Assembly: GCA_041650835.1 (NCBI GenBank)
Contig: JBAZKL010000001.1
Span: 637,617-701,616 of the forward strand
Reading direction: 5' to 3'
Source: Candidatus Omnitrophota bacterium
GTDB lineage: Bacteria; Omnitrophota; Gorgyraeia; Gygaellales; Profunditerraquicolaceae
DNA: 64,000 bases
Shown here: positions 8,109 through 56,341 of the stretch, one piece after another
Layout: the number at the start of each line of letters is the position of its first letter
Numbering within the stretch: position 1 is the stretch's first letter
Position numbers and translations under genes: made by a program
Notes under the pieces: model-generated
What the model was told of the DNA's origin: nothing
Seen by the model: only the letters and a program-made list of their open reading frames with translations
Databases searched by the model: none

Positions 8109-9599
8109 CTAAAACCCATACCAGTAATTTACCAGCGGCTTTGAACCTTTCGAGGCATCGACGATCACATTCTTAAGGCGGCAATACTCATAGAATCCAT
8201 CCTTACCCAATTCCTTGCCGAAGCCGCTTTGTTTAAAGCCTCCATAGGGGACTTCATTATAGAACATACCGTAGGTATTGATCCAGATAGTGCCGGCATT
8301 GATCTTTTGGGCCGTTTCTTTCGCCAAGTCAATATCCTGTGTCCATAAAGAACAGGCGAGCGCGAACTCACTTTCGTTGGCCAATACAACCGCCCCATTG
8401 AGGCTGGAGAATTTATCGATACAAGCTACCGGGCCGAAAACCTCCTCTTTAAAGATCGTCATTGCCGAAGAAACCTCGCTCAAGACGGCAGGCTCCAGAA
8501 AAAATCCTTTATGAAACGCCTCCGCGGCGGGAATAACACCTCCGCAGAGAAGGCGCGAGCCTTCTTTTTTCGCTTTCTCAATATACATAAGGACTTTCTT
8601 GCGCTGTAAATCAGAGACCAGCGGCCCCATTTGAGTCTGGAAATCTTCCGCGCTGCCTAATTTGATCCTTTTCGCTTTCGCGCAGAATTCAGAAATGAAC
8701 GCGTCGTATATCTCTTCAGCCACGAGGATGCGCGACATTGCCGTGCACATCTGCCCCTGGTTCAGGAATATTGAACACAATAAACCGTTAACCGCCAGTT
8801 CCAGGTCCGCGTCCTTAAAAACTATTCCCGCGGACTTACCTCCTAATTCCACGACCAATTTCTTAACGTGCTCGGCGGAATCATTGATGATACGTTTTCC
8901 CACTTCATTACTGCCGGTAAAAGACACCATATCCACGCGCTTATCCTTGCACAAAACTTCTCCCAGAACGGCTCCCGGGCCGTTAAGGATATTTACCGCT
9001 CCCTGGGGCAGGCCGGCATCATAAATGATCCTGCCTAATGCCAAGGCGGTCAAAGGAGTCAAGCTCGAGGGTTTCAGGATCACCGTATTGCCCGCTGCCA
9101 GCGCTTGCGCCATTTTCCAACAAGCGATCAACAAGGGATAATTCCACGGCACGATCAAAACAACCACCCCATGCGGTTCGCGCATAAGCACGCTTTCGGC
9201 ATCGCCGGTTTGCGCGGAGATCTTTATCGTTTCGGGGCGTAAATAATTTTCCAGGTTGTTGGCGAAATACTCGAACGTTTTAGCGGCGCTGGGAATATCC
9301 ATAAAAGTGGATTCTTTAATAGGCTTGCCGGTATTGGCTGACTCAAGCTGCGCTAATTCCTCCGCCCGGTCCAATATTCCCTGCGCGATCTTTAAAATAA
9401 AGGCTTTGCGTTCAGGTAAAGTCAGCCTTGGCCAGGGACCCTGGTCAAAAGCGGAACGCGCGGCCGCTAAAGCTACTTCAACGTCCCTCACAGATGCAAC
9501 CGAAACTTCGGCGATAACCTGCCCGTTGGAAGGGTTGATGACCTTATGCTTCTCTTTAGTATCCTTTAATTCACCGTCAATAAGTAGTTGAGTATCCAT
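8109..9599 (-). CDS. NAD(P)-dependent aldehyde dehydrogenase
   Basis: 496 aa with ELGGKSAGIV (glutamate active site) and FLNQGQMCTAMSR (catalytic Cys) motifs. Confidence 0.9.
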   Translation of the reverse strand: MDTQLLIDGELKDTKEKHKVINPSNGQVIAEVSVASVRDVEVALAAARSAFDQGPWPRLTLPERKAFILKIAQGILDRAEELAQLESANTGKPIKESTFMDIPSAAKTFEYFANNLENYLRPETIKISAQTGDAESVLMREPHGVVVLIVPWNYPLLIACWKMAQALAAGNTVILKPSSLTPLTALALGRIIYDAGLPQGAVNILNGPGAVLGEVLCKDKRVDMVSFTGSNEVGKRIINDSAEHVKKLVVELGGKSAGIVFKDADLELAVNGLLCSIFLNQGQMCTAMSRILVAEEIYDAFISEFCAKAKRIKLGSAEDFQTQMGPLVSDLQRKKVLMYIEKAKKEGSRLLCGGVIPAAEAFHKGFFLEPAVLSEVSSAMTIFKEEVFGPVACIDKFSSLNGAVVLANESEFALACSLWTQDIDLAKETAQKINAGTIWINTYGMFYNEVPYGGFKQSGFGKELGKDGFYEYCRLKNVIVDASKGSKPLVNYWYGF

Positions 9600-10095: not shown

Positions 10096-10306
10096 CTAAC
10101 GGATGGCTGCGACTGCACCTTGCCTTTATCGGATTGGCAAGTGCGTCCTTCTGGACTGATTTTGAGCGGGGCATAAAGGCAAGGAGCGGGCATGGTGTCC
10201 CGACGTTATACGTCGGGACGAGCGACGCAGCCGACCTGAGCGAAGTTTTGCCACGCTGGGGCAAAACGAGCGTCCCCGCGAGAAACAGTCGCAGCCATCC
10301 GTAATC
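10096..10306. repeat. 211 bp structured element bounded by 17-20 bp perfect terminal inverted repeats, with nested internal hairpins
   Basis: acggatggctgcgactg at 10099-10115 is the exact reverse complement of 10287-10303. Internal stems are ccttgcctttat/ataaaggcaagg, gtcccgacg/cgtcgggac and gttttgcc/ggcaaaac. Confidence 0.5.
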
Positions 10307-25967: not shown

Positions 25968-26119
25968 AGCTTATAAAACCTCCCGAGCCTTACGCTTATA
26001 GTAAAATTTTACTATATTATTTCCCAATATTTTATAATTAAATTATTTTTTGTCAAGCCTAAAAACTAACATCTCATCAAACAAGGGATTACCGCGGGAT
26101 AACAAAGACACGAAAGGAC

Positions 26120-27337: not shown

Positions 27338-30300
27338 CTAAACACCGGTTTTCGGCGGGTGAGCCTGGGCGATAGTGTTTGTGTTTTGTCTGTCCTTTTT
27401 CTCAAAAGTATCTTTCCGGTGAAATATCGCGTAGAGCGTCGGGACAAAAAGCAGCGTGATCAACGTGGAAACCGTAAGCCCTCCGAACATGGTAATGCCG
27501 AGCGGCCGCCAGGTCTCCGATCCCACGCCGCTTGATATTGCCAAAGGCAACAATCCCGCCAGCGTCGTAATGGTAGTCATAAGCACCGGGCGCAGCCTGT
27601 CCCTGCCGGCATTGGTCACCGCGTCATGCATCGATTCGCCGCGGGCGCGTAAAATAATTATATAACTGATCAATACGATAGCGTTGTTAACGACGATCCC
27701 GATAAGCATGATCGCGCCCAGGAAGCTCACGATATTCAACGTGGTCCCCGTGAGCACAAAACCCAAAACAACGCCGATAAAGGTAAACGGAATGGAGAAC
27801 ATGATGATAAACGGGTCCAGCAGCGACTCGAATTGAGCGGCCATGACCATGTACACAAGTGAGACACCCAGCAATAAAAGCAGGGTAAGGTCGCGGAAGG
27901 CTTTTTTCTGTTCTTCCGCCTCGCCTCCGACATTGATCGTCATATCGGAAGGCAGGACTATCGCCTGCATCGCGTCCTTGAGGTCTTCAACGACCTTGCC
28001 GCTGGAGCGGTTATAGGTATTACATTCCACCCTCACCACCCGTTCGCGGTTCTGGCGTTCAATTTCGCGCGGGACAAACCCCTCGCGGATCGCCGCTATG
28101 CTCGAAAGCCTCACCTGGCTTTGCGTCACGGGAGAAATAATCGTTAAATTCTCAATATCTTCTATACTCTGGCGCGAAGATTCCTCCAGCCGCACATAAA
28201 TATCATAGGTATCCCCTTTTTCCCGGTACTTACTTGCAGTCGAGCCTTCGATACAGGTCTTAAGCGTACTGGAAATAATATTCATGTTCAACCCCACGCT
28301 CGCCGCCTTCTGACGGTCAACCTCTATCATTAACTCAGGAAGCTGCAATTCCCGGGAGATCGACGCATCGACCGTGCCGGGGATCTCCTCCATCATGCCC
28401 TTTATTTTCTGCGCGATCTCTTCGGTTTGCGAAAACGAATTACCGACGATCTCTATCTGCACGGCCTTGCCTCCCAGCCCGGTAAGCATCCTGCCGATCG
28501 GATTGCCGGTCTGGATATCGATCTTCAGGACGCCGGGGATCTTCTTGATCTTATTACGCAGGTCCTGGGCTATTTCCCAGACTAAACGCTTGCGCTTTGT
28601 CTTAGCCACCAGCTTTGCCCCCGCGGTAACGATATTTGAACCGGAGACCTGCCCCATGCCCCGGCCCCTGCCCTCAACCGTCCCTGTGCGGGCATAATAA
28701 AACCGTGCTTCAGGGATATCGTTTTTTAGTATTCCTTCAATTCTCTTGGCAACTTTTTCGCTCTCTTCAAGGCGCGTTCCCAGGGGAAGGTTAATAGTCA
28801 AACGAACGTCCCCGGTATCTTCTTCAGGAGAAAATTCATTACCCACAAAAGGCACCAGGAGCATCGTGGCAAAGAAAGCCGCGGCAAAGCCGATAATGAC
28901 CGTCTTTTTATGGCGCAGGCACCAATCCAAAAGGTTTGAATAGAAAGACTCCCAGGACCTGAACATGTTCTCGGAGAATTCATAGAAGCGGTCAAAGAAC
29001 CGTTTATCTTTCCCGGCATGATAAACAGTTTTCATCCATTGAGAACAAAGCATGGGGCTGAAAGTAGCCGCGGTAAAAAGCGACCCCAGAAGGGTCACGG
29101 TAACGATCACCGCCAGCTCCGAGAAAAAAATACCGATGACCCCGGGAATAAAAAGCATGGGCATAAAAACAACCACGGTCGTCAAAGTTGAAGCCGCGAT
29201 AGCTAAAAACATTTCCTGCGTGCCGAATATCGCCGCCTCTGTCGGCCTATTGCCCCTCTCCAGCTTGCGGTATATATTATCGACAACGACGATAGCGTTA
29301 TCGACGACCATTCCCGCGGCAATAGCCAAAGATGAGAGGCTTATCGTATTGATGGTCTTGCCGCTTAAGAAAAGATAAATGAACGCGATCAAAAGAGAGA
29401 ATGGTATGGTAAGGGCAATGATCAGGCTGGGCAGGAACTGGCGCAGGAAGAACCAGACTACGACAACGACCAGGATGATCCCCAAATAGACCGAAGACTT
29501 CAAAGAGTCCAACGAATCAATGATATCCTGCGAGGTGTCGAAAATTGTATACATCGAAACATCGGCAGGCAGCGTTTTCTCTAAGTCCTTAAGCTTCTTT
29601 TTAATACGATTGGCGACCTCAACCGTATTGGTATCCGTCTGCTTTTGGATCATTAACATTAACCCGGAACGCCCGTTAATACGGACATTAAGCGTGACTT
29701 CTTTAAAACCGTCCTCTATAGTCGCGACATCCTTTAAATACACGATCTTTCCGTCGCGCTTGCCCAGGATGACCGTGTTTATTTCCTCCGGCTCAATGAA
29801 CTCCCCCGGCAGGCGGATCAGGTAATCGGTCAACCCTGTTTTAAGCTTTCCTAACGGCTGCGAGACATTTTCCTGTTTTAAGATATCCTGGATATCCAGG
29901 ATAGAAAGCCCGTACCCTTCCAAACGGCTCTTATCCAGCGAGACATTAACCTGGCGCTCCAGACCTCCGAGAAGCTCTACCGTCCCTACTCCGGGCAGCT
30001 GGCGGATAGCGTCTCCTACCCTTTTATCGATAAGATCATTTAATTGCGCGTATGACTGCTGCGCGGTGATCCCCATGAAAAGAATGGGGATATTCGCGGT
30101 ATTGAATTTATAGATGAACGGATTATCCATTTCATCGGGGATATCGGGCAAGAAGCGCTTAGCTAATTCAAGGCGGTCGCGCACGTCATTGGTGGCGGCA
30201 TCAAGGTTTGTCCCCCAAATGAACTTCATGGTGATCAAAGAAGCGCCTTCGGAAGACTTGGAGGTCAATTTTTCAAGGCCGGGAGTTGTCGCCAGCTGGT

Positions 30301-36016: not shown

Positions 36017-36360
36017 TCTCCTTTCGCAGAAAGCGAAACACCAACGCAATTCCTCTTAAGCGTTGGGTGTAACAGAAAGGCGCATACCCACACAATTCCA
36101 ATTTGTGTGGGGTGTTCGCAGAAAGCGAAACACGCCGCAGTAAGCGGCGTACTTGCCTATCCAATTAAGGCAAGTGCCAACGCAATTCTGCCGCAGTAAG
36201 CGGCATACCCAGCCACACCAATTAGGCTGGGTGCGATCTGCGTTGGGTGTAACAGAAAGCCGCGTACCGGCGCAATTCCAATCTGCGCCGGGTGCAGGCA
36301 GAAAGCCACACACCCCGCTACACCTATAAAGCGGGGTGCCAATTTGCGCGGGATATTACA
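36017..36360. ncRNA. array of at least 8 tandem stem-loops with variable stems and conserved loop motifs; candidate CsrB/RsmZ-like sRNA on the minus strand, or a structured leader/repeat array
   Basis: Hairpins are caccaacgc/gcgttgggtg, cccacaca/tgtgtggg, cgccgc/gcggcg, cttgcc/ggcaag, gccgc/gcggc, cccagcc/ggctggg, ccggcgc/gcgccgg and ccccgct/agcgggg. Loops are AATTCCAAT-like (AUUGGAAUU on the minus strand). Units recur as taCC[stem]-loop-[stem]GGgtg. The strand is unresolved. Confidence 0.55.
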
Positions 36361-37728: not shown

Positions 37729-39255
37729 ATGGTAGCAAAAATATTCAGCTTCAGCTTATGGGGTTTAGAAGCTTATCCCATTGATATAGAGATAGATATA
37801 TCAAACGGACTGCCCGCGTTAACTATAGTCGGGCTGGCGGATACCGCGGTAAAAGAAAGCAAAGAACGCGTAAAATCAGCCATCAAGAATTCCGGGTTCA
37901 ACTGGCCGGCAGAAAGAATAACCATAAGCCTGGCACCTTCAGATATCAAAAAAGAAGGGACCGGCTTTGACCTGGCGATCGCTTTAGGGATACTATCCGC
38001 CTCAGAGCAGCTTAACAGCGTTAACCTGGAAAGTTTTTGCGTGTTAGGAGAACTTTCCTTAGACGGCTCTATCAGGCCGACCAAAGGTATCTTACCTATC
38101 AGCATATCTTTAGCAAAAACTAAAATAAAAAACCTTATTCTCCCCTGCTGGAACGCGAAAGAAGCAGCGGTCATTTCCGATATCAATGCCTATCCTTTAA
38201 GGACACTGCGGGAAACAGTGGAATTTTTAAGCAATCCGGAAACGATCCAGCCGCTTAAAGTCGATATTAAAGACCTTTTCCAAATCCAGGCGCGTTATCA
38301 AGAGGATTTCTCGGAAGTAAAAGGGCAGTATTTCGCCAAACGCGCCCTCGAAGTCGCGGTCGCGGGAGGCCACAACATCCTCTTCATCGGCCCGCCGGGA
38401 AGCGGAAAGACCATGCTTGCCCAAAGGATACCCACGATCATTCCCGATCTAACGCTCCCGGAAGCCTTAGAAATAACTAAAATACATTCTATAGCCGGTA
38501 TCCTGCCGATAAAAGACGGGATCATTACCCGGCGGCCCTTCCGCCTGCCGCATCATACGATCTCAGGGGCCGCGCTGGTCGGCGGAGGCTCGACTCCGCA
38601 AGCTGGCGAAATAAGCCTGGCGCATCAAGGCGTATTATTCCTGGATGAATTGCCGGAATTTAACCGGAACTGCCTTGAATCGTTGCGCCAGCCTCTCGAA
38701 GACGGGACGATCTCCATATCCCGGGTCAACCGGTCATTTGTTTTCCCGGCTTCTTTCATGCTTGCCTGCGCGATGAACCCCTGCCCCTGCGGGTATTACA
38801 CCGACCCCCATAAAACCTGCAAATGCAACTCCATAAAAATAGACCATTACATGGGAAAGATATCCGGCCCGCTCCTGGACAGGATCGATATCCATATTGA
38901 AATACCCGCCATTCACTATAAAGAATTGACCGATCCCCAAGAAGCCGAACCTTCAGCAGTGATCAAAGCGCGCGTTGAAAAAGCGCGGGTGATACAGCGA
39001 GAACGCTTACGCCATGACCGTATCTTTCATAACGCCCGCATGAGCACAAGGCTGATCAAAAAATACTGCACGCTGGAAGATGAAGCAAAAGAAATACTCC
39101 GGCTGGCAATGACCGAGCTGGGATTATCCGCGCGGGCCTATGATAAGGTCATCCGCGTCAGCCGCACTATCGCTGACCTCGCCGGCTCGGATATAATACG
39201 CGCCGGGCACATCGCCGAAGCCGTGCAATACCGCAGCCTTGACCGGAAATTATGA
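37729..39255 (+). CDS. comM: YifB/ComM family Mg-chelatase-like AAA+ ATPase
   Basis: 508 aa with Walker A GPPGSGKTM, Walker B LFLDELPEF, and N-terminal Lon-like and C-terminal ChlI domains. Confidence 0.9.
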   Translation: MVAKIFSFSLWGLEAYPIDIEIDISNGLPALTIVGLADTAVKESKERVKSAIKNSGFNWPAERITISLAPSDIKKEGTGFDLAIALGILSASEQLNSVNLESFCVLGELSLDGSIRPTKGILPISISLAKTKIKNLILPCWNAKEAAVISDINAYPLRTLRETVEFLSNPETIQPLKVDIKDLFQIQARYQEDFSEVKGQYFAKRALEVAVAGGHNILFIGPPGSGKTMLAQRIPTIIPDLTLPEALEITKIHSIAGILPIKDGIITRRPFRLPHHTISGAALVGGGSTPQAGEISLAHQGVLFLDELPEFNRNCLESLRQPLEDGTISISRVNRSFVFPASFMLACAMNPCPCGYYTDPHKTCKCNSIKIDHYMGKISGPLLDRIDIHIEIPAIHYKELTDPQEAEPSAVIKARVEKARVIQRERLRHDRIFHNARMSTRLIKKYCTLEDEAKEILRLAMTELGLSARAYDKVIRVSRTIADLAGSDIIRAGHIAEAVQYRSLDRKL

Positions 39256-39345
39256 CGACAGGGACCTGTCAAAAGGTGGCTGTCACCCTTTGACTTGATT
39301 AAAGACAAAACCATGAAAAAAACACAACGCTTGAATCTTGCAATT

Positions 39346-39396
39346 GAAGAAGCTTGGTGACTGTCACGTTTTGCGTGACTGTCACCAAGCTTCTCG
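39346..39396. repeat. inverted pair of REP-like palindromes (GTGACTGTCACC core)
   Basis: gaagaagcttggtgactgtcacg tttt gcgtgactgtcaccaagcttctc forms a near-perfect 51 nt palindrome immediately upstream of the RAYT gene. A related copy ggtggctgtcaccc lies at 39276-39289. Confidence 0.6.
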
Positions 39397-39411
39397 GTTT
39401 AAAGCATACTT

Positions 39412-40032
39412 ATGCCGCGCACCTCACGTTTTATTGCAACAAACGCTTTCTACCATATCATATCCCGCTCACTAAATGATACCCATATACTACGAGACAA
39501 CGATGATTTTACGCGTTTCTTTATGCTTGTTGATACAGCAAAACAAAAATATCCCATCCTGATATTTCATTATGTCGCAATGAATACTCATTTTCATTTA
39601 GTAGTACAAGCGCCTAATCATGAGATTCTTTCTAAGAATATTTCGCATCTAAAATGGCATTACACATTGTGGATGAGAAAAAAATACGGATGGAAAGGCC
39701 CCCTATGGAAGGAACGATACAAAAGTTTACCTATCGAAAACGAAAATTATCTTTATGCCTGCGGAATGTATATCGCCTATAACCCTGTCCGGGCGGGGGT
39801 ATGCAAAGACCCCGGTGATTACCCTTACAGCAGCTTCCGAAAATACCATAGAGGAATAAATGATCCGTTGATCGATCTCCAAGAAAGCCAGAAAGGTGAC
39901 AGTCACCTTTCTGAACAATGGGATTTCCGTTCGAATTTGCTAAAAAATATTTTCAGCCACTCTTCAGCTATCGGCTCAACCCTTTTTATCGAAAAACTTA
40001 AACAACCCCGAAATGCCTGTCCCCAAAAGTGA
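39412..40032 (+). CDS. REP-associated tyrosine transposase (RAYT; IS200/IS605 Y1 transposase-like)
   Basis: Y1 transposase motifs are present: HTH-like N-terminus, HFHLVV (HuH) and the C-terminal YIAYNPVRAGVCKDPGDYPYSSF. The gene is flanked by REP palindromes. Confidence 0.8.
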   Translation: MPRTSRFIATNAFYHIISRSLNDTHILRDNDDFTRFFMLVDTAKQKYPILIFHYVAMNTHFHLVVQAPNHEILSKNISHLKWHYTLWMRKKYGWKGPLWKERYKSLPIENENYLYACGMYIAYNPVRAGVCKDPGDYPYSSFRKYHRGINDPLIDLQESQKGDSHLSEQWDFRSNLLKNIFSHSSAIGSTLFIEKLKQPRNACPQK

Positions 40033-40060
40033 CTGTCACCAAAAGTGACTGTCACCGTTG
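40028..40060. repeat. two direct REP copies (aaaagtgactgtcacc x2)
   Basis: Tandem 16-mers immediately after the RAYT stop codon. Confidence 0.6.
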
Positions 40061-40065
40061 CCGGG

Positions 40066-41010
40066 CTACTTATTGCGCGCGCAGCGGAAGCCCGTGTATT
40101 CATTGATATAACCCGGGGCGTCCGCTGTGCGTTCTGTAGTACGTAATTGCCCGCTATCGCTAAACCAGAATCCGCCCCGGATAACACGCGAGCCCCCCTT
40201 CAGAGGGCCGACGGGATCTTTATACGCGGCAGCCTGATAATAGCCGGCATCATACCAATCGTTACACCATTCTTGAACGTTACCGGCCATACCTACCGCG
40301 CCATACGGGCTCTTATATTCCTGGAACTTCCAAACCGCCACCGTATAATAAAAACCATCTTTTTTCCGGCTGTAATTTGCCCTGATAATTCCATTGGCAT
40401 GCGGTTCAGCGTTACCCCAGGGGTAGGTGCGGCGGTCAGTCCCCCGCGCGCATTTTTCCCATTCCGCTTCGCTCGGCAGTCGATAGCCATCCCGGGAAAA
40501 ATCGCATATCCCGCTATCCTCGTCATAACACGGCTGCAAGCCCTCCACGCGGCTGCGCCAATTGCAATAATGGATCGCGTCCCACCAGCTGACATTGACT
40601 ACCGGATGGTTATCGAATTGTTTAAAGCTCGGATCATCCCACTCCCCCAGGGGCTTATACCCTGACGCCTTAACAAATTGACGGAACTCACCCACGGTCA
40701 CTTCACAGCGGTCAATTAAGAACGCGCTCAAGAAGACCTCATGCTCCGGCTTTTCATCCCGGTTAACACGGCTATCATTCCGCGGCCCGCCCATGATAAA
40801 CGCGCCCGCCGGCACGCTCACCATGCCTAAACCGGTATTAGGGCAGACATTAACGAAAGGGGGCGAAAAACCCTTGAACGCGAACCATGCGGTCAACAGT
40901 ACCCCGGAGATGGCCGTAAATATAACAATTAAATTTATGAATAATTTACGGGAGACAGTCCTCATCTTATAAGCGCTCTCATATGCCCTTAATTGAATAC
41001 TCCTCAACAA
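40066..41010 (-). CDS. formylglycine-generating enzyme (SUMF1/FGE-sulfatase domain) family protein, membrane anchored
   Basis: FGE-sulfatase signatures (RCEVTVGEFRQFV, GNVQEWCNDWYD, RVIRGGFW) after an N-terminal TM helix. Confidence 0.8.
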   Translation of the reverse strand: MLRSIQLRAYESAYKMRTVSRKLFINLIVIFTAISGVLLTAWFAFKGFSPPFVNVCPNTGLGMVSVPAGAFIMGGPRNDSRVNRDEKPEHEVFLSAFLIDRCEVTVGEFRQFVKASGYKPLGEWDDPSFKQFDNHPVVNVSWWDAIHYCNWRSRVEGLQPCYDEDSGICDFSRDGYRLPSEAEWEKCARGTDRRTYPWGNAEPHANGIIRANYSRKKDGFYYTVAVWKFQEYKSPYGAVGMAGNVQEWCNDWYDAGYYQAAAYKDPVGPLKGGSRVIRGGFWFSDSGQLRTTERTADAPGYINEYTGFRCARNK

Positions 41011-41156
41011 AACACCTCAAAGGCGAAGCGGCGAATGCTCTTTTGATTGATAAGTTCTGTTTTTCGGCTATAATTTAGAAAGGAAAACGATAAGGCTACG
41101 CTTAATTATATCAACATTTACCCCTGAGTAAACAAGAAACTTCCGCGGGCATACGC

Positions 41157-43196
41157 ATGATCAAAAAAAACACCATTATTATCCCGGCCCTCTATTTACT
41201 CCTCCTGCCCCTGCTCCTGGAAATAGATCTCAGGGCCCTGGATCACTTGTTTTATAAAGAACCGCCCCCGCAAAAAGAATACATCATCTATTGCTTCGGC
41301 GATTCATTTACCTTCGGAGACGGAGCTCAGCCTAAAGACAGTTATCCGCGCCATCTCCAGAGAAAATTAAACGCCCGCCTCCGCAGGCGGGTAAGAGTTT
41401 TTAATCTCGGGGTACCAGGCGCGAACTCATCACAGGTATCAAATTTCATGCGCGCTATATTCGCGCGGTACCAAAGCCCCGACCTGGTATTACTGCGGGC
41501 AGGGACCAATGACGGATGGAATTTTGCCGATAATACGTTTCCCGGCTTGCAAAATAAAAAAGCGACAGGAAATGACCGCGCCCAAACGCTTCTGCGCGAC
41601 TCAAAGCTCCACCGCGCCCTGTTAACGCTCTCAGAGATAAAGGAATCCCCCCTCTCGTATGACCCCACGGGAAGAGACAAAGACAACCCCCTTTTCCTTG
41701 CCAAAAAATCAGATGATTTCAGCAGGCTCGCTCAATTTAATCTTGAGGCAATGGCAGCAACCGCGCGAGCAGGCGGCAGCAAAATATTTTTATTGAATTA
41801 CCCGCGCGGCGATATTTACGGCCCGCGCACCATCGCAAGCGTCGCTGAAAAGCTCTCCCTGCCCCTGGTGGATATCCGGGCCGCCTTTAATAAAAAGCTT
41901 CAAGGACACGATGAAAAAGAGTTGTTCGCGCCCTGGTGGGAGTGGAGCCACCCTAACGGCCGGGGATATGAACTTATGGCCCAAGCGATATACGACAAGA
42001 TGCTCAGCGAAGGGATTATCGTTGAAGACAAGGATAAAATATCCCTCATGACTTTTCGCGCGCACAAACGAGATAACGCTAAACTCGACAACTGCACAAT
42101 CGAGGTCAGCGATATCCAAAGAAGGCTCGACACAGAGAACCAACGCGTAGAGATCACCTATTCGCTCAAACCAAAAGCTTCAGGGACACTCTCTCAAAAG
42201 AACCCCGCGTATATATTCCTGTCTTATTCCCCCGGCGGCGCTCACCCCGGCGCCCCCTGGCAGCGCCCCTCGCCTGTTGCCGTCGATATAAACGGGAACG
42301 GACAGACGGATAAACCAAAAGACGCCTTAGTGGCCCAGTCCGGCAAACAACGCAGTTTTTTTTATTATGCCCGCGCGGGGCTCTCCGACAAAGACGTTAC
42401 CGCTGACAACTTTGCTATCCATATCCACGCGCTGGAAATGGTTTACGCACCCGCGGGGATTTACCGTATCGGCAACTGCCAAGCGCCTTTTGAGACGGAT
42501 GGTGAAGCGCAAACACAGGGGTTTTATATCATGAAATACCCTGCCACTATCGCGGAATACGCGGCATACCTCAATGAAACGGAAAAACAAGATACCGGCT
42601 TATACCCTTATCTTTTTAAGTATAACCATAAAATGGCGCAACAGGCTTGCGGAATTACACGCATAGGGACAGACGGTAATTATTCCTATATTATCCGCAA
42701 AGATAAAGCGGATTTCCCCGTCGTGTTTGTTACCTGGTTTAACGCCTTTGATTTCGCCCGATGGGCCGGCATGCGCCTGCCGAGTGAAGCGGAATGGGAA
42801 ATAACCGCCCGCGGATGCGACCAAAGGATGTACCCGTGGGGAAATTCTCCCGAACCAAAGGAGAGCATCTGCAATATGTTCGATGACGGGGTGTCTTACG
42901 CATCGGATGTATTGCGTTATGAACAGGCATGGGAACAACAAGGGCTGTCTTCGCCATTCGGGGCAAGAGAACTCACCGGCAATGTATGGGAATGGGTAGA
43001 CACCTATTGGTATGATACCGGCTTCTATGATGAACGTCAAAGCAGGACTGATTATAAAAATACCGCTAACAGGGTCCTGCGGGGAGGAGATTGGGGAACT
43101 GCTTCCTCATGGCAGAAAGCCGCGGCGCGCAACAATGACATAACTTCCCTGGCACGCAAGAACGGCATCGGATTTCGCTGCGCAATTGATGACTAA
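41157..43196 (+). CDS. fusion protein: N-terminal SGNH/GDSL hydrolase domain plus C-terminal FGE-sulfatase domain
   Basis: GDSL block (YCFGDSFTFGDG) near the N-terminus and FGE-sulfatase blocks (YRIGNCQ, GNVWEWVDTYWYD, RVLRGGDWG) in the C-terminal half. Signal peptide or TM at the N-terminus. Confidence 0.75.
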   Translation: MIKKNTIIIPALYLLLLPLLLEIDLRALDHLFYKEPPPQKEYIIYCFGDSFTFGDGAQPKDSYPRHLQRKLNARLRRRVRVFNLGVPGANSSQVSNFMRAIFARYQSPDLVLLRAGTNDGWNFADNTFPGLQNKKATGNDRAQTLLRDSKLHRALLTLSEIKESPLSYDPTGRDKDNPLFLAKKSDDFSRLAQFNLEAMAATARAGGSKIFLLNYPRGDIYGPRTIASVAEKLSLPLVDIRAAFNKKLQGHDEKELFAPWWEWSHPNGRGYELMAQAIYDKMLSEGIIVEDKDKISLMTFRAHKRDNAKLDNCTIEVSDIQRRLDTENQRVEITYSLKPKASGTLSQKNPAYIFLSYSPGGAHPGAPWQRPSPVAVDINGNGQTDKPKDALVAQSGKQRSFFYYARAGLSDKDVTADNFAIHIHALEMVYAPAGIYRIGNCQAPFETDGEAQTQGFYIMKYPATIAEYAAYLNETEKQDTGLYPYLFKYNHKMAQQACGITRIGTDGNYSYIIRKDKADFPVVFVTWFNAFDFARWAGMRLPSEAEWEITARGCDQRMYPWGNSPEPKESICNMFDDGVSYASDVLRYEQAWEQQGLSSPFGARELTGNVWEWVDTYWYDTGFYDERQSRTDYKNTANRVLRGGDWGTASSWQKAAARNNDITSLARKNGIGFRCAIDD

Positions 43197-56143: not shown

Positions 56144-56341
56144 GCAACGCAGCCCCCCGATCGAACGATCGGGGCTGTCGCTTTGCGCCCCAGCATTACT
56201 GCTAGTTAGCCTTTTTCAGTAGGTTCAAACTATATTGAACGAACTACCTGTTCTTATTAAACTATAACATACAATCGGACTTTTTTCCAAAAACAAATCG
56301 ATTTACCGCGGTAGGCGCGCCTGGCGGCGGAAAAACAGGGA

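Follow-up and report, generated by a model that had tools for sequence, protein, structure and literature searches.

To our knowledge, repetitive extragenic palindromes (REPs) and the REP-associated tyrosine transposases (RAYTs) that accompany them have been studied almost only in Proteobacteria. The nearest described counterpart of the system treated here is TnpAREP of E. coli (RAYT, YafM; PDB 4ER8), encoded by a single-copy gene flanked by REPs, an arrangement termed a REPtron. In Pseudomonas, the RAYTs of Groups 2 and 3 are single-copy and vertically inherited and are accompanied by REP doublets forming hairpins (REPINs) that are dispersed between genes; these REPIN–RAYT systems were reportedly set out by Bertels and Rainey in 2011. 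RAYTs of Group 4, from Cyanobacteria, Chlorobia and Caldilineae, have low-abundance flanking repeats, and single-copy, vertical behaviour is that of a RAYT and not of an insertion sequence (IS) (Bertels 2017, PMC5581495). A Y...NP signature marks the class-2 (TnpAREP-like) Y1 proteins, and several TnpAY1 subclasses have been described as having a conserved serine motif past the catalytic tyrosine (Quentin 2018, PMC6006769). Here, a 64-kb stretch of a Candidatus Omnitrophota metagenome-assembled genome (MAG), called the window below, was analysed together with the loci and contigs of relatives (L numbers). The gene at 39412–40032 of the window and the palindromes around it very probably form a REPtron, that is, a single-copy, vertically inherited RAYT (a TnpAREP-type Y1 HUH nuclease) bracketed by its cognate REP palindromes. 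REP/RAYT systems would thereby be extended to the uncultured phylum Omnitrophota.

The locus resembles that of E. coli in that a single-copy gene is flanked by REPs and in that an REP lies at or just past the stop codon, as already known for rayt genes (Nunvar 2010, PMC2817692). It differs in the protein, which is ~20% identical and 206 aa long versus 165 aa, with an extra conserved ~40-aa tail; in the repeat, whose core, GTGACWGTCAC, compared with the E. coli REPs and bacterial interspersed mosaic elements (BIMEs), lacks a GT[AG]G tag and is a dyad in each unit; in the presence of an REP inside the open reading frame (ORF); and in the host phylum. Inverted doublets that form long hairpins, intergenic dispersal (here in the relatives L132 and L003) and a single-copy, vertically inherited RAYT are shared with the Pseudomonas systems, but the Omnitrophota doublet is much shorter (18-nt unit spacing, ~45 nt in total) and its abundance varies strongly between sister genomes, with none outside the locus in the window. 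Low-abundance flanking repeats and a non-proteobacterial host recall Group 4, and the Y...NP signature and serine motif recall the class 2 TnpAY1 subclasses; these are likenesses by described traits, and no named group or subclass was assigned. The RAYT-like genes of two Chloroflexota loci (L008 and L056) are flanked by the identical 11-nt core, but their proteins are only 23–24% identical. TnpA of the IS200/IS605 elements (IS608, ISDra2) has the same Y1 HUH fold and would likewise recognise single-stranded DNA hairpins; unlike these elements, the Omnitrophota gene does not move as a unit and occupies a fixed syntenic site, with a negligible IS200 profile score, no tnpB and no multi-copy signature. 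The system is known in kind, and its protein is a divergent RAYT member. Modestly novel are the Omnitrophota host, the anchoring beside comM, a dyad-type REP core common to distant Chloroflexota RAYTs, the REP-derived stop codon and last residues, and a compensated REP hairpin in coding sequence.

Family assignment and fold of the protein

The 206-aa ORF with the motifs HFHLVV and YIAYNPVRAG...DYPYSSF, which a preliminary description of the window had read as a RAYT gene, was found at 39412–40032, and its family reading held at the level of profiles, sequence and fold. The HUH motif is H60-F61-H62 (39589–39597), the Y...NP motif is Y120/N124/P125 (39769–39786) and the serine motif DYPYSS occupies residues 136–141. 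Pfam Y1_Tnp was matched above its gathering score (E = 7e-11), and the only substantial family match was NCBIfam REP_Tyr_transpos (NF047646; 70.7 bits over profile positions 2–146 of 146, with a curated equivalog cut-off of 80). The IS200 model (NF033573) gave 13.2 bits versus a cut-off of 55. The best sequence match in the PDB was 4ER8, E. coli TnpAREP, with which the HUH, YIxxNPV (Y...NP, catalytic) and D(W/Y)PxS (D-W/Y-P-x-S-S) motifs were aligned. A model was computed with AlphaFold (AF2) from 69 homologues, at a predicted local distance difference test score (pLDDT) of 88; 4ER8 was again its best match in Foldseek (E = 1.1e-9, template modelling score (TM) 0.74), with ISDra2/IS608 TnpA at 5e-6 or worse. 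Residues H53, Y54, F61, H62, Y120, N124 and P125 were invariant in the 69 sequences, and H60 was kept in at least 90% of them. The two elements of a class-2 Y1 HUH protein, HUH and Y-x-x-x-N-P, are both present. Because the profile, PDB sequence, fold and motif evidence agree, the protein is assigned to RAYT/TnpAREP rather than to IS200.

The tail of the protein had been thought unusually long, the product of a recent readthrough or extension, with homologues expected to end near residue ~150. They do not end there. The 83 sequences returned by the homologue search, all from Omnitrophota-type metagenomes or MAGs, were 195–212 aa long and covered 95–100% of the query; the tail (~65 aa) has conserved positions (L153, Y157, F181 and I187) and an AIGS motif, and its residues 171–200 were modelled at pLDDT 81–89. 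The Chloroflexota RAYT-like proteins are also ~200 aa long. With a conserved tail in homologues of this length, an origin by readthrough or extension was ruled out.

REP palindromes at the locus and in relatives

The core GTGACWGTCAC is the commonest 11-mer of the window. Five exact copies were found (39357, 39375, 39896, 40029 and 40045) versus 0.01 expected by shuffling, and none of 100 shuffles reached five. At two mismatches or fewer, GGTGACWGTCACC was matched seven times versus 0.29 expected; six of the seven lie at the RAYT locus, and the seventh (52190, two mismatches) is at chance level. The mismatch-tolerant search added degenerate REP copies at 39275 (GGTGGCTGTCACC) and in a 16-nt unit at 40013–40026. 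All REP copies of the window fall within 39268–40056, upstream of the ORF, inside it, and across and after its stop codon, which agrees with the bracketing by REP-type palindromes, one of them intragenic, that had been described earlier. The 64 kb yielded no further family of dispersed repeats, and a literature search on the 11-mer core returned only unrelated primer or oligonucleotide matches. The features of the locus are as follows.

37729–39255, plus strand: comM/yifB-like gene of the Mg-chelatase family (ORF and Pfam domains); upstream neighbour, outside the element
39268–39294, no strand: degenerate singlet REP hairpin GTCAAAAGGTGGCTGTCACCCTTTGAC, 13 nt past the comM stop codon
39313–39360, plus strand: 15-codon remnant of a conserved 88-aa CxxC small ORF, with its stop codon in the first GTGAC of the REP doublet
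39348–39394, no strand: REP doublet (REPIN-like hairpin) of two GTGACTGTCAC units, ending 18 nt before the ATG
39412–40032, plus strand: RAYT-like Y1 HUH nuclease gene, 206 aa (ORF, motifs, profiles and fold)
39889–39913, no strand: intragenic singlet REP, a perfect 25-nt palindrome CAGAAAGGTGACAGTCACCTTTCTG, encoding Q160–S167 (QKGDSHLS)
40013–40056, no strand: three tandem 16-nt REP units, the first degenerate, the second with the stop codon, the third intergenic

The copies are thus arranged in three ways, as an inverted doublet, as singlets with extended stems and as a tandem 16-nt array, and each 11-mer core is itself a 5-1-5 dyad. The degenerate copy GGTGGCTGTCACC (39275–39287), which the preliminary description had listed as REP-like, lies within the hairpin at 39268–39294 (single-stranded DNA fold of −7.4 kcal/mol, z = −2.9); its counterpart in L004 is an intact copy at 9598. 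The inverted pair was also there, but its palindrome measures 47 nt and not 51: two 21-nt arms (39348–39368 and 39374–39394), 95% complementary, with units 18 nt apart from start to start, form a 20-bp stem, interrupted at its centre by a T.T mismatch, and enclose a 5-nt loop (−24.2 kcal/mol, z = −9.05). The intragenic palindrome is perfect and inside the ORF as claimed (−10.7 kcal/mol, z = −5.6), and lies 6 nt away from the position first given to it (39883–39907). Both direct copies of AAAAGTGACTGTCACC were recovered, at 40025–40040 and 40041–40056; only the second follows the stop codon, and the first, which had also been placed after it, contains the TGA (40030–40032). The first tandem unit (40013–40026) codes for the last residues, ACPQK, and the third reaches to within 10 nt of the stop codon of a convergent FGE-sulfatase gene. 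Since an REP overlaps the stop codon (TGA inside GTGAC), the last codons are REP-derived, and for the same reason the C-termini conserved among homologues, ACPQK and CLSQK, each followed by the stop, are translated REP sequence.

In the relatives in which the gene is linked to comM, the same repeat stands on both sides of the ORF, with one core copy 32–110 nt before the ATG and a second at stop-3 or up to ~40 nt past the stop; the stop-3 position was seen in at least 12 homologue loci. The doublet form of 39348–39394 was also found upstream of homologues and dispersed in L132 and L003. In L132, whose RAYT is 67% identical, 22 exact copies were counted in 12.6 kb, all intergenic and mostly in a uniform doublet, gaagGTGACTGTCACgctttttGTGACTGTCACctttgccaaaaa; in L003, a variant doublet, GTGCCTGTCAC-N7-GTGACTGGCAC, occupies five intergenic spacers in 20 kb, not counting the RAYT locus, taken as the gene with the spacers next to it. 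L004 (20.6 kb) and L005 had no clear REP copy outside the RAYT locus. A scan of public genome contigs for doublets returned at least 119 stretches, among them at least eight Omnitrophota loci with doublets and no RAYT nearby; the stretches listed included none from the MAG of the window. Open frames overlap doublets in L106 and L034; the one in L106 was considered as a RAYT and rejected, having no tblastn similarity and, by eye, no RAYT motifs. The six flank positions outside the core were complementary in 80% of cases over 34 distinct doublets, where unrelated bases would naively be expected to pair in 25%; spread over 17 flank sequences, this complementarity reads as covariation for a hairpin. 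Sister species differ widely in this respect: some have no dispersed copies over tens of kb, and at the other extreme almost every spacer has a doublet, so that the clade offers a natural series for REP expansion and death. The preliminary description had also allowed for the opposite outcome, a palindrome unique to this locus beside a non-transposase protein; in the 64 kb the core is confined to this locus, in sister genomes it is dispersed, and the protein matches RAYT/TnpAREP.

These distributions bear on whether the palindromes serve their own gene alone, as operator sites for autoregulation or as processing sites, the RAYT being quiescent or REP-depleted and its own genome free of dispersed REPs. 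The confinement of every window copy to 39268–40056, the like situation of L004 and L005, the 5-1-5 dyad of each unit and the conservation across species of the sites before the ATG and on the stop codon all suit such a role. It is nevertheless improbable, given the dense intergenic populations in sister genomes that share the core and whose proteins are 67–68% identical, and the doublets that other Omnitrophota genomes have away from any RAYT. RAYTs of Groups 1 and 4 have ~12–14 copies of the flanking 16mer per replicon (Bertels 2017, PMC5581495). At that density (~10–15 copies per genome), fewer than one copy would be expected per 64 kb, by an estimate that assumes a genome of a few Mb, and the absence of REPs elsewhere in the window is therefore uninformative.

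In more remote members of the family, other palindromes occupy these two sites, before the ATG and just past the stop (GTGCCAGCTAC..GTAGCTGGCAC, GGGACTGTCCC, GTGCCTGGCAC and CTGTCCCC..GGGGACAG; gene flanks of L151, L157, L164, L168, L176, L198 and L128). That the palindromes differ with RAYT distance is the usual co-variation of RAYT and REP. In MAGs of Chloroflexota/Anaerolineae (examples within L007–L125 of the doublet scan) the same 11-nt core is common, at 18–19-nt spacing and in the perfect hairpin GTGACAGTCAC-N7/8-GTGACTGTCAC, and it flanks the RAYT-like genes of L008 (4174–5770) and L056 (3738–5258). Because these two proteins are only 23–24% identical to that of the window, the core is common to both phyla although the proteins have diverged deeply; together with the shared 18-nt doublet spacing, this bears on how REP recognition is retained or passes from one phylum to another.

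By homology with E. coli TnpAREP, the RAYT would bind REP hairpins extruded on single-stranded DNA and would cleave and rejoin them through Y120, with a metal held by H60/H62. REP doublets would thereby be copied into intergenic spacers, a dispersal visible in sister genomes and not in the 64 kb of the window. The gene-flanking REPs are conserved resident copies, one 18–110 nt before the ATG and one overlapping the stop codon.

Several points weigh against the REPtron reading. Catalysis and REP mobilisation are read for the whole clade by analogy with E. coli TnpAREP. The 5-1-5 dyad of each 11-mer is also suited to a dimeric regulator that binds double-stranded DNA. The window, from the genome in which dispersal is postulated, had no REP copies outside the RAYT locus. 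The NF047646 score lies below its equivalog cut-off; relatives score 69–76 bits on the same model, and the protein thus belongs to a divergent subfamily and is not an equivalog. Finally, the REP units read (G)GTGAC, and no GTAG or GTGG precedes the stems, the exception being GGTGGC in the degenerate copy at 39275. A 5′ GT[AG]G tag is typical of classical REPs and is not universal. REP classes that lack it are on record (Quentin 2018, PMC6006769).

Synteny and vertical inheritance beside comM

The RAYT gene lies downstream of the comM/yifB-like gene, on the same strand, in L003 (68% identity), L004 (61%), L005 (53%), L019 and ~20 metagenome loci as in the window, and comM is directly upstream of every homologue of at least 46% identity whose contig reaches that far (range 46–72%). 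The upstream block (ACCA, LysM/YkuD, DUF212, a hypothetical gene and comM) is conserved, and the downstream genes differ. The window has one copy of the gene. Homologues of 35–45% identity showed no linkage to comM; such distant homologues (for example P0082, in L128), unlinked to comM and with other palindromes, were left out of the synteny argument. The fixed position beside comM and the conserved flanking REP cores show that the gene is vertically inherited and is not a mobile IS, which is the behaviour of a RAYT. In the comM-linked clade it is a fixed chromosomal landmark that is annotated only as "transposase".

On the same evidence an autonomous IS200/IS605-type insertion sequence, with the flanking hairpins as its left and right ends, is hardly credible. 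The Y1_Tnp fold is present and hairpins on both sides of the gene are reminiscent of IS608 ends, but the site downstream of comM is the same from 46% to 72% protein identity, the window has a single gene copy, the IS200 model scores 13 bits versus a cut-off of 55, no tnpB was seen among the Pfam domains of the neighbouring genes, and the protein bears both the Y...NP signature of class 2 and the serine motif of RAYTs. An IS200-type mobile element was ruled out on synteny and profile scores.

Between comM and RAYT, three relatives have an 88-aa CxxC ORF with a DDCPLC motif and no Pfam match (L003, 9569–9835; L004, 9653–9919; L126, 564–830). The 15-codon remnant in the window reads MKKTQRLNLAIEEAW followed by a stop, versus MNKTKRSNPVIKYQD... 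in the full ORFs, and its end inside the REP doublet points to an REP-associated deletion of ~230 nt.

In L126 (1015–2346), a 495-nt partial tandem duplicate of the 3′ part of RAYT has its junction precisely at the stop-codon REP; either REPs mediated a genuine duplication, or the short contig was misassembled. In L128 (10001–11946), the 35%-identity homologue that is unlinked to comM lies downstream of an RHS/SpvB toxin-like gene, and 650 nt beyond it is another Y1_Tnp gene, of 233 aa, which scores 81.8 bits with the RAYT model.

The intragenic REP hairpin

An intragenic REP was found only in the lineages of the window, L003, L126 and L127. Its site is the most variable segment of the family and the block of lowest model confidence (residues 161–170, pLDDT 57). 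The window copy is a singlet whose extended stem is perfect; at the orthologous site, L003 and L126 have a full REP doublet, with six more codons. It is translated as GDSH in the window, GACHVLCDWH in L003, GDCHALCDCH in L126 and GDYQRDNCH in L127, where the copy has decayed (GGTGACTATCAGAGAGATAACTGTCAC). The suggestion in the preliminary description that an REP had been inserted into the coding region fits this restriction to a small sub-clade and the added codons. The palindrome would descend from an REP doublet that entered a flexible, variable loop in the ancestor of the sub-clade; it would have been tolerated in frame, and its hairpin kept or renewed, not decayed, in three of the four lineages.

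L003 and L126 are 86% identical in DNA. Along the 17 positions of their intragenic stem (16 pairs and the T.T mismatch) three differences were found, and all three are compensatory and none disruptive: between the L003 and L126 stems, A-T to G-C twice and A-T to C-G once. Two concern pairs of the stem flank (AAAACG...CGTTTT to AAGGCG...CGCCTT) and the third a pair of the core (GTGCC...GGCAC to GTGAC...GTCAC). The core change in L003 matches the REP variant of its own genome and costs a D-to-A and a C-to-W change in the protein. This leaves two options for the intragenic hairpin, selection or renewal by the REP population; that it is functional or homogenised is plausible, if unproven, and because the L127 copy has decayed, the hairpin is dispensable.

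There is almost an even chance that this REP insertion is simply tolerated within the gene, as a neutral passenger without any function. Its occurrence in the four lineages alone, its placement where the protein is most variable and model confidence lowest, and its decay in L127 are as expected of such a passenger. Less easily accommodated are the perfect 25-nt palindrome of the window, the three stem differences at 86% DNA identity, compensatory without exception, and the one pair that copies the REP variant of its genome despite changes in two residues. A tentative and less likely possibility is that the intragenic REP is actively kept matched to the REPs of the genome, by RAYT-driven templated replacement or gene conversion, or by selection for self-regulation through the enzyme, the mRNA or the DNA. 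If so, a domesticated transposase would carry its own substrate in its gene and co-evolve with it, part of a loop and the last five residues being REP-encoded. With the compensated intragenic hairpin, the interplay between a domesticated transposase and the gene that encodes it can be tested directly on a small scale.

A further candidate role for the palindrome inside the ORF, together with the 3′ REPs, is that of terminator or insulator: transcription of the convergent FGE-sulfatase gene (end at 40066) would be stopped there and RAYT shielded from antisense transcription. Read on the minus strand, the palindrome (39888–39914) is followed by CTTTCTT and was flagged as terminator-like, as was the REP pair at 40035–40049 on the same strand, with a T-rich tail. 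The T-tract is poor, however, the pattern scan was weakly enriched (five found versus 2.1 expected), and the downstream neighbours vary between species while the REPs stay, so that such a role appears quite unlikely.

Other perfect palindromes of 20–25 nt, unrelated to the REP core, were noted in the window at 10197–10219, 25997–26016, 29884–29903, 36087–36111 and 56155–56174 (for example TATAGTAAAATTTTACTATA and TATCCTGGATATCCAGGATA). Beyond the RAYT locus, two adjacent genes with FGE-sulfatase domains occupy 40066–43196, one of them (41157–43196) fused to a GDSL lipase domain; with the sulfatase genes found farther downstream, this suggests a sulfatase-maturation neighbourhood.

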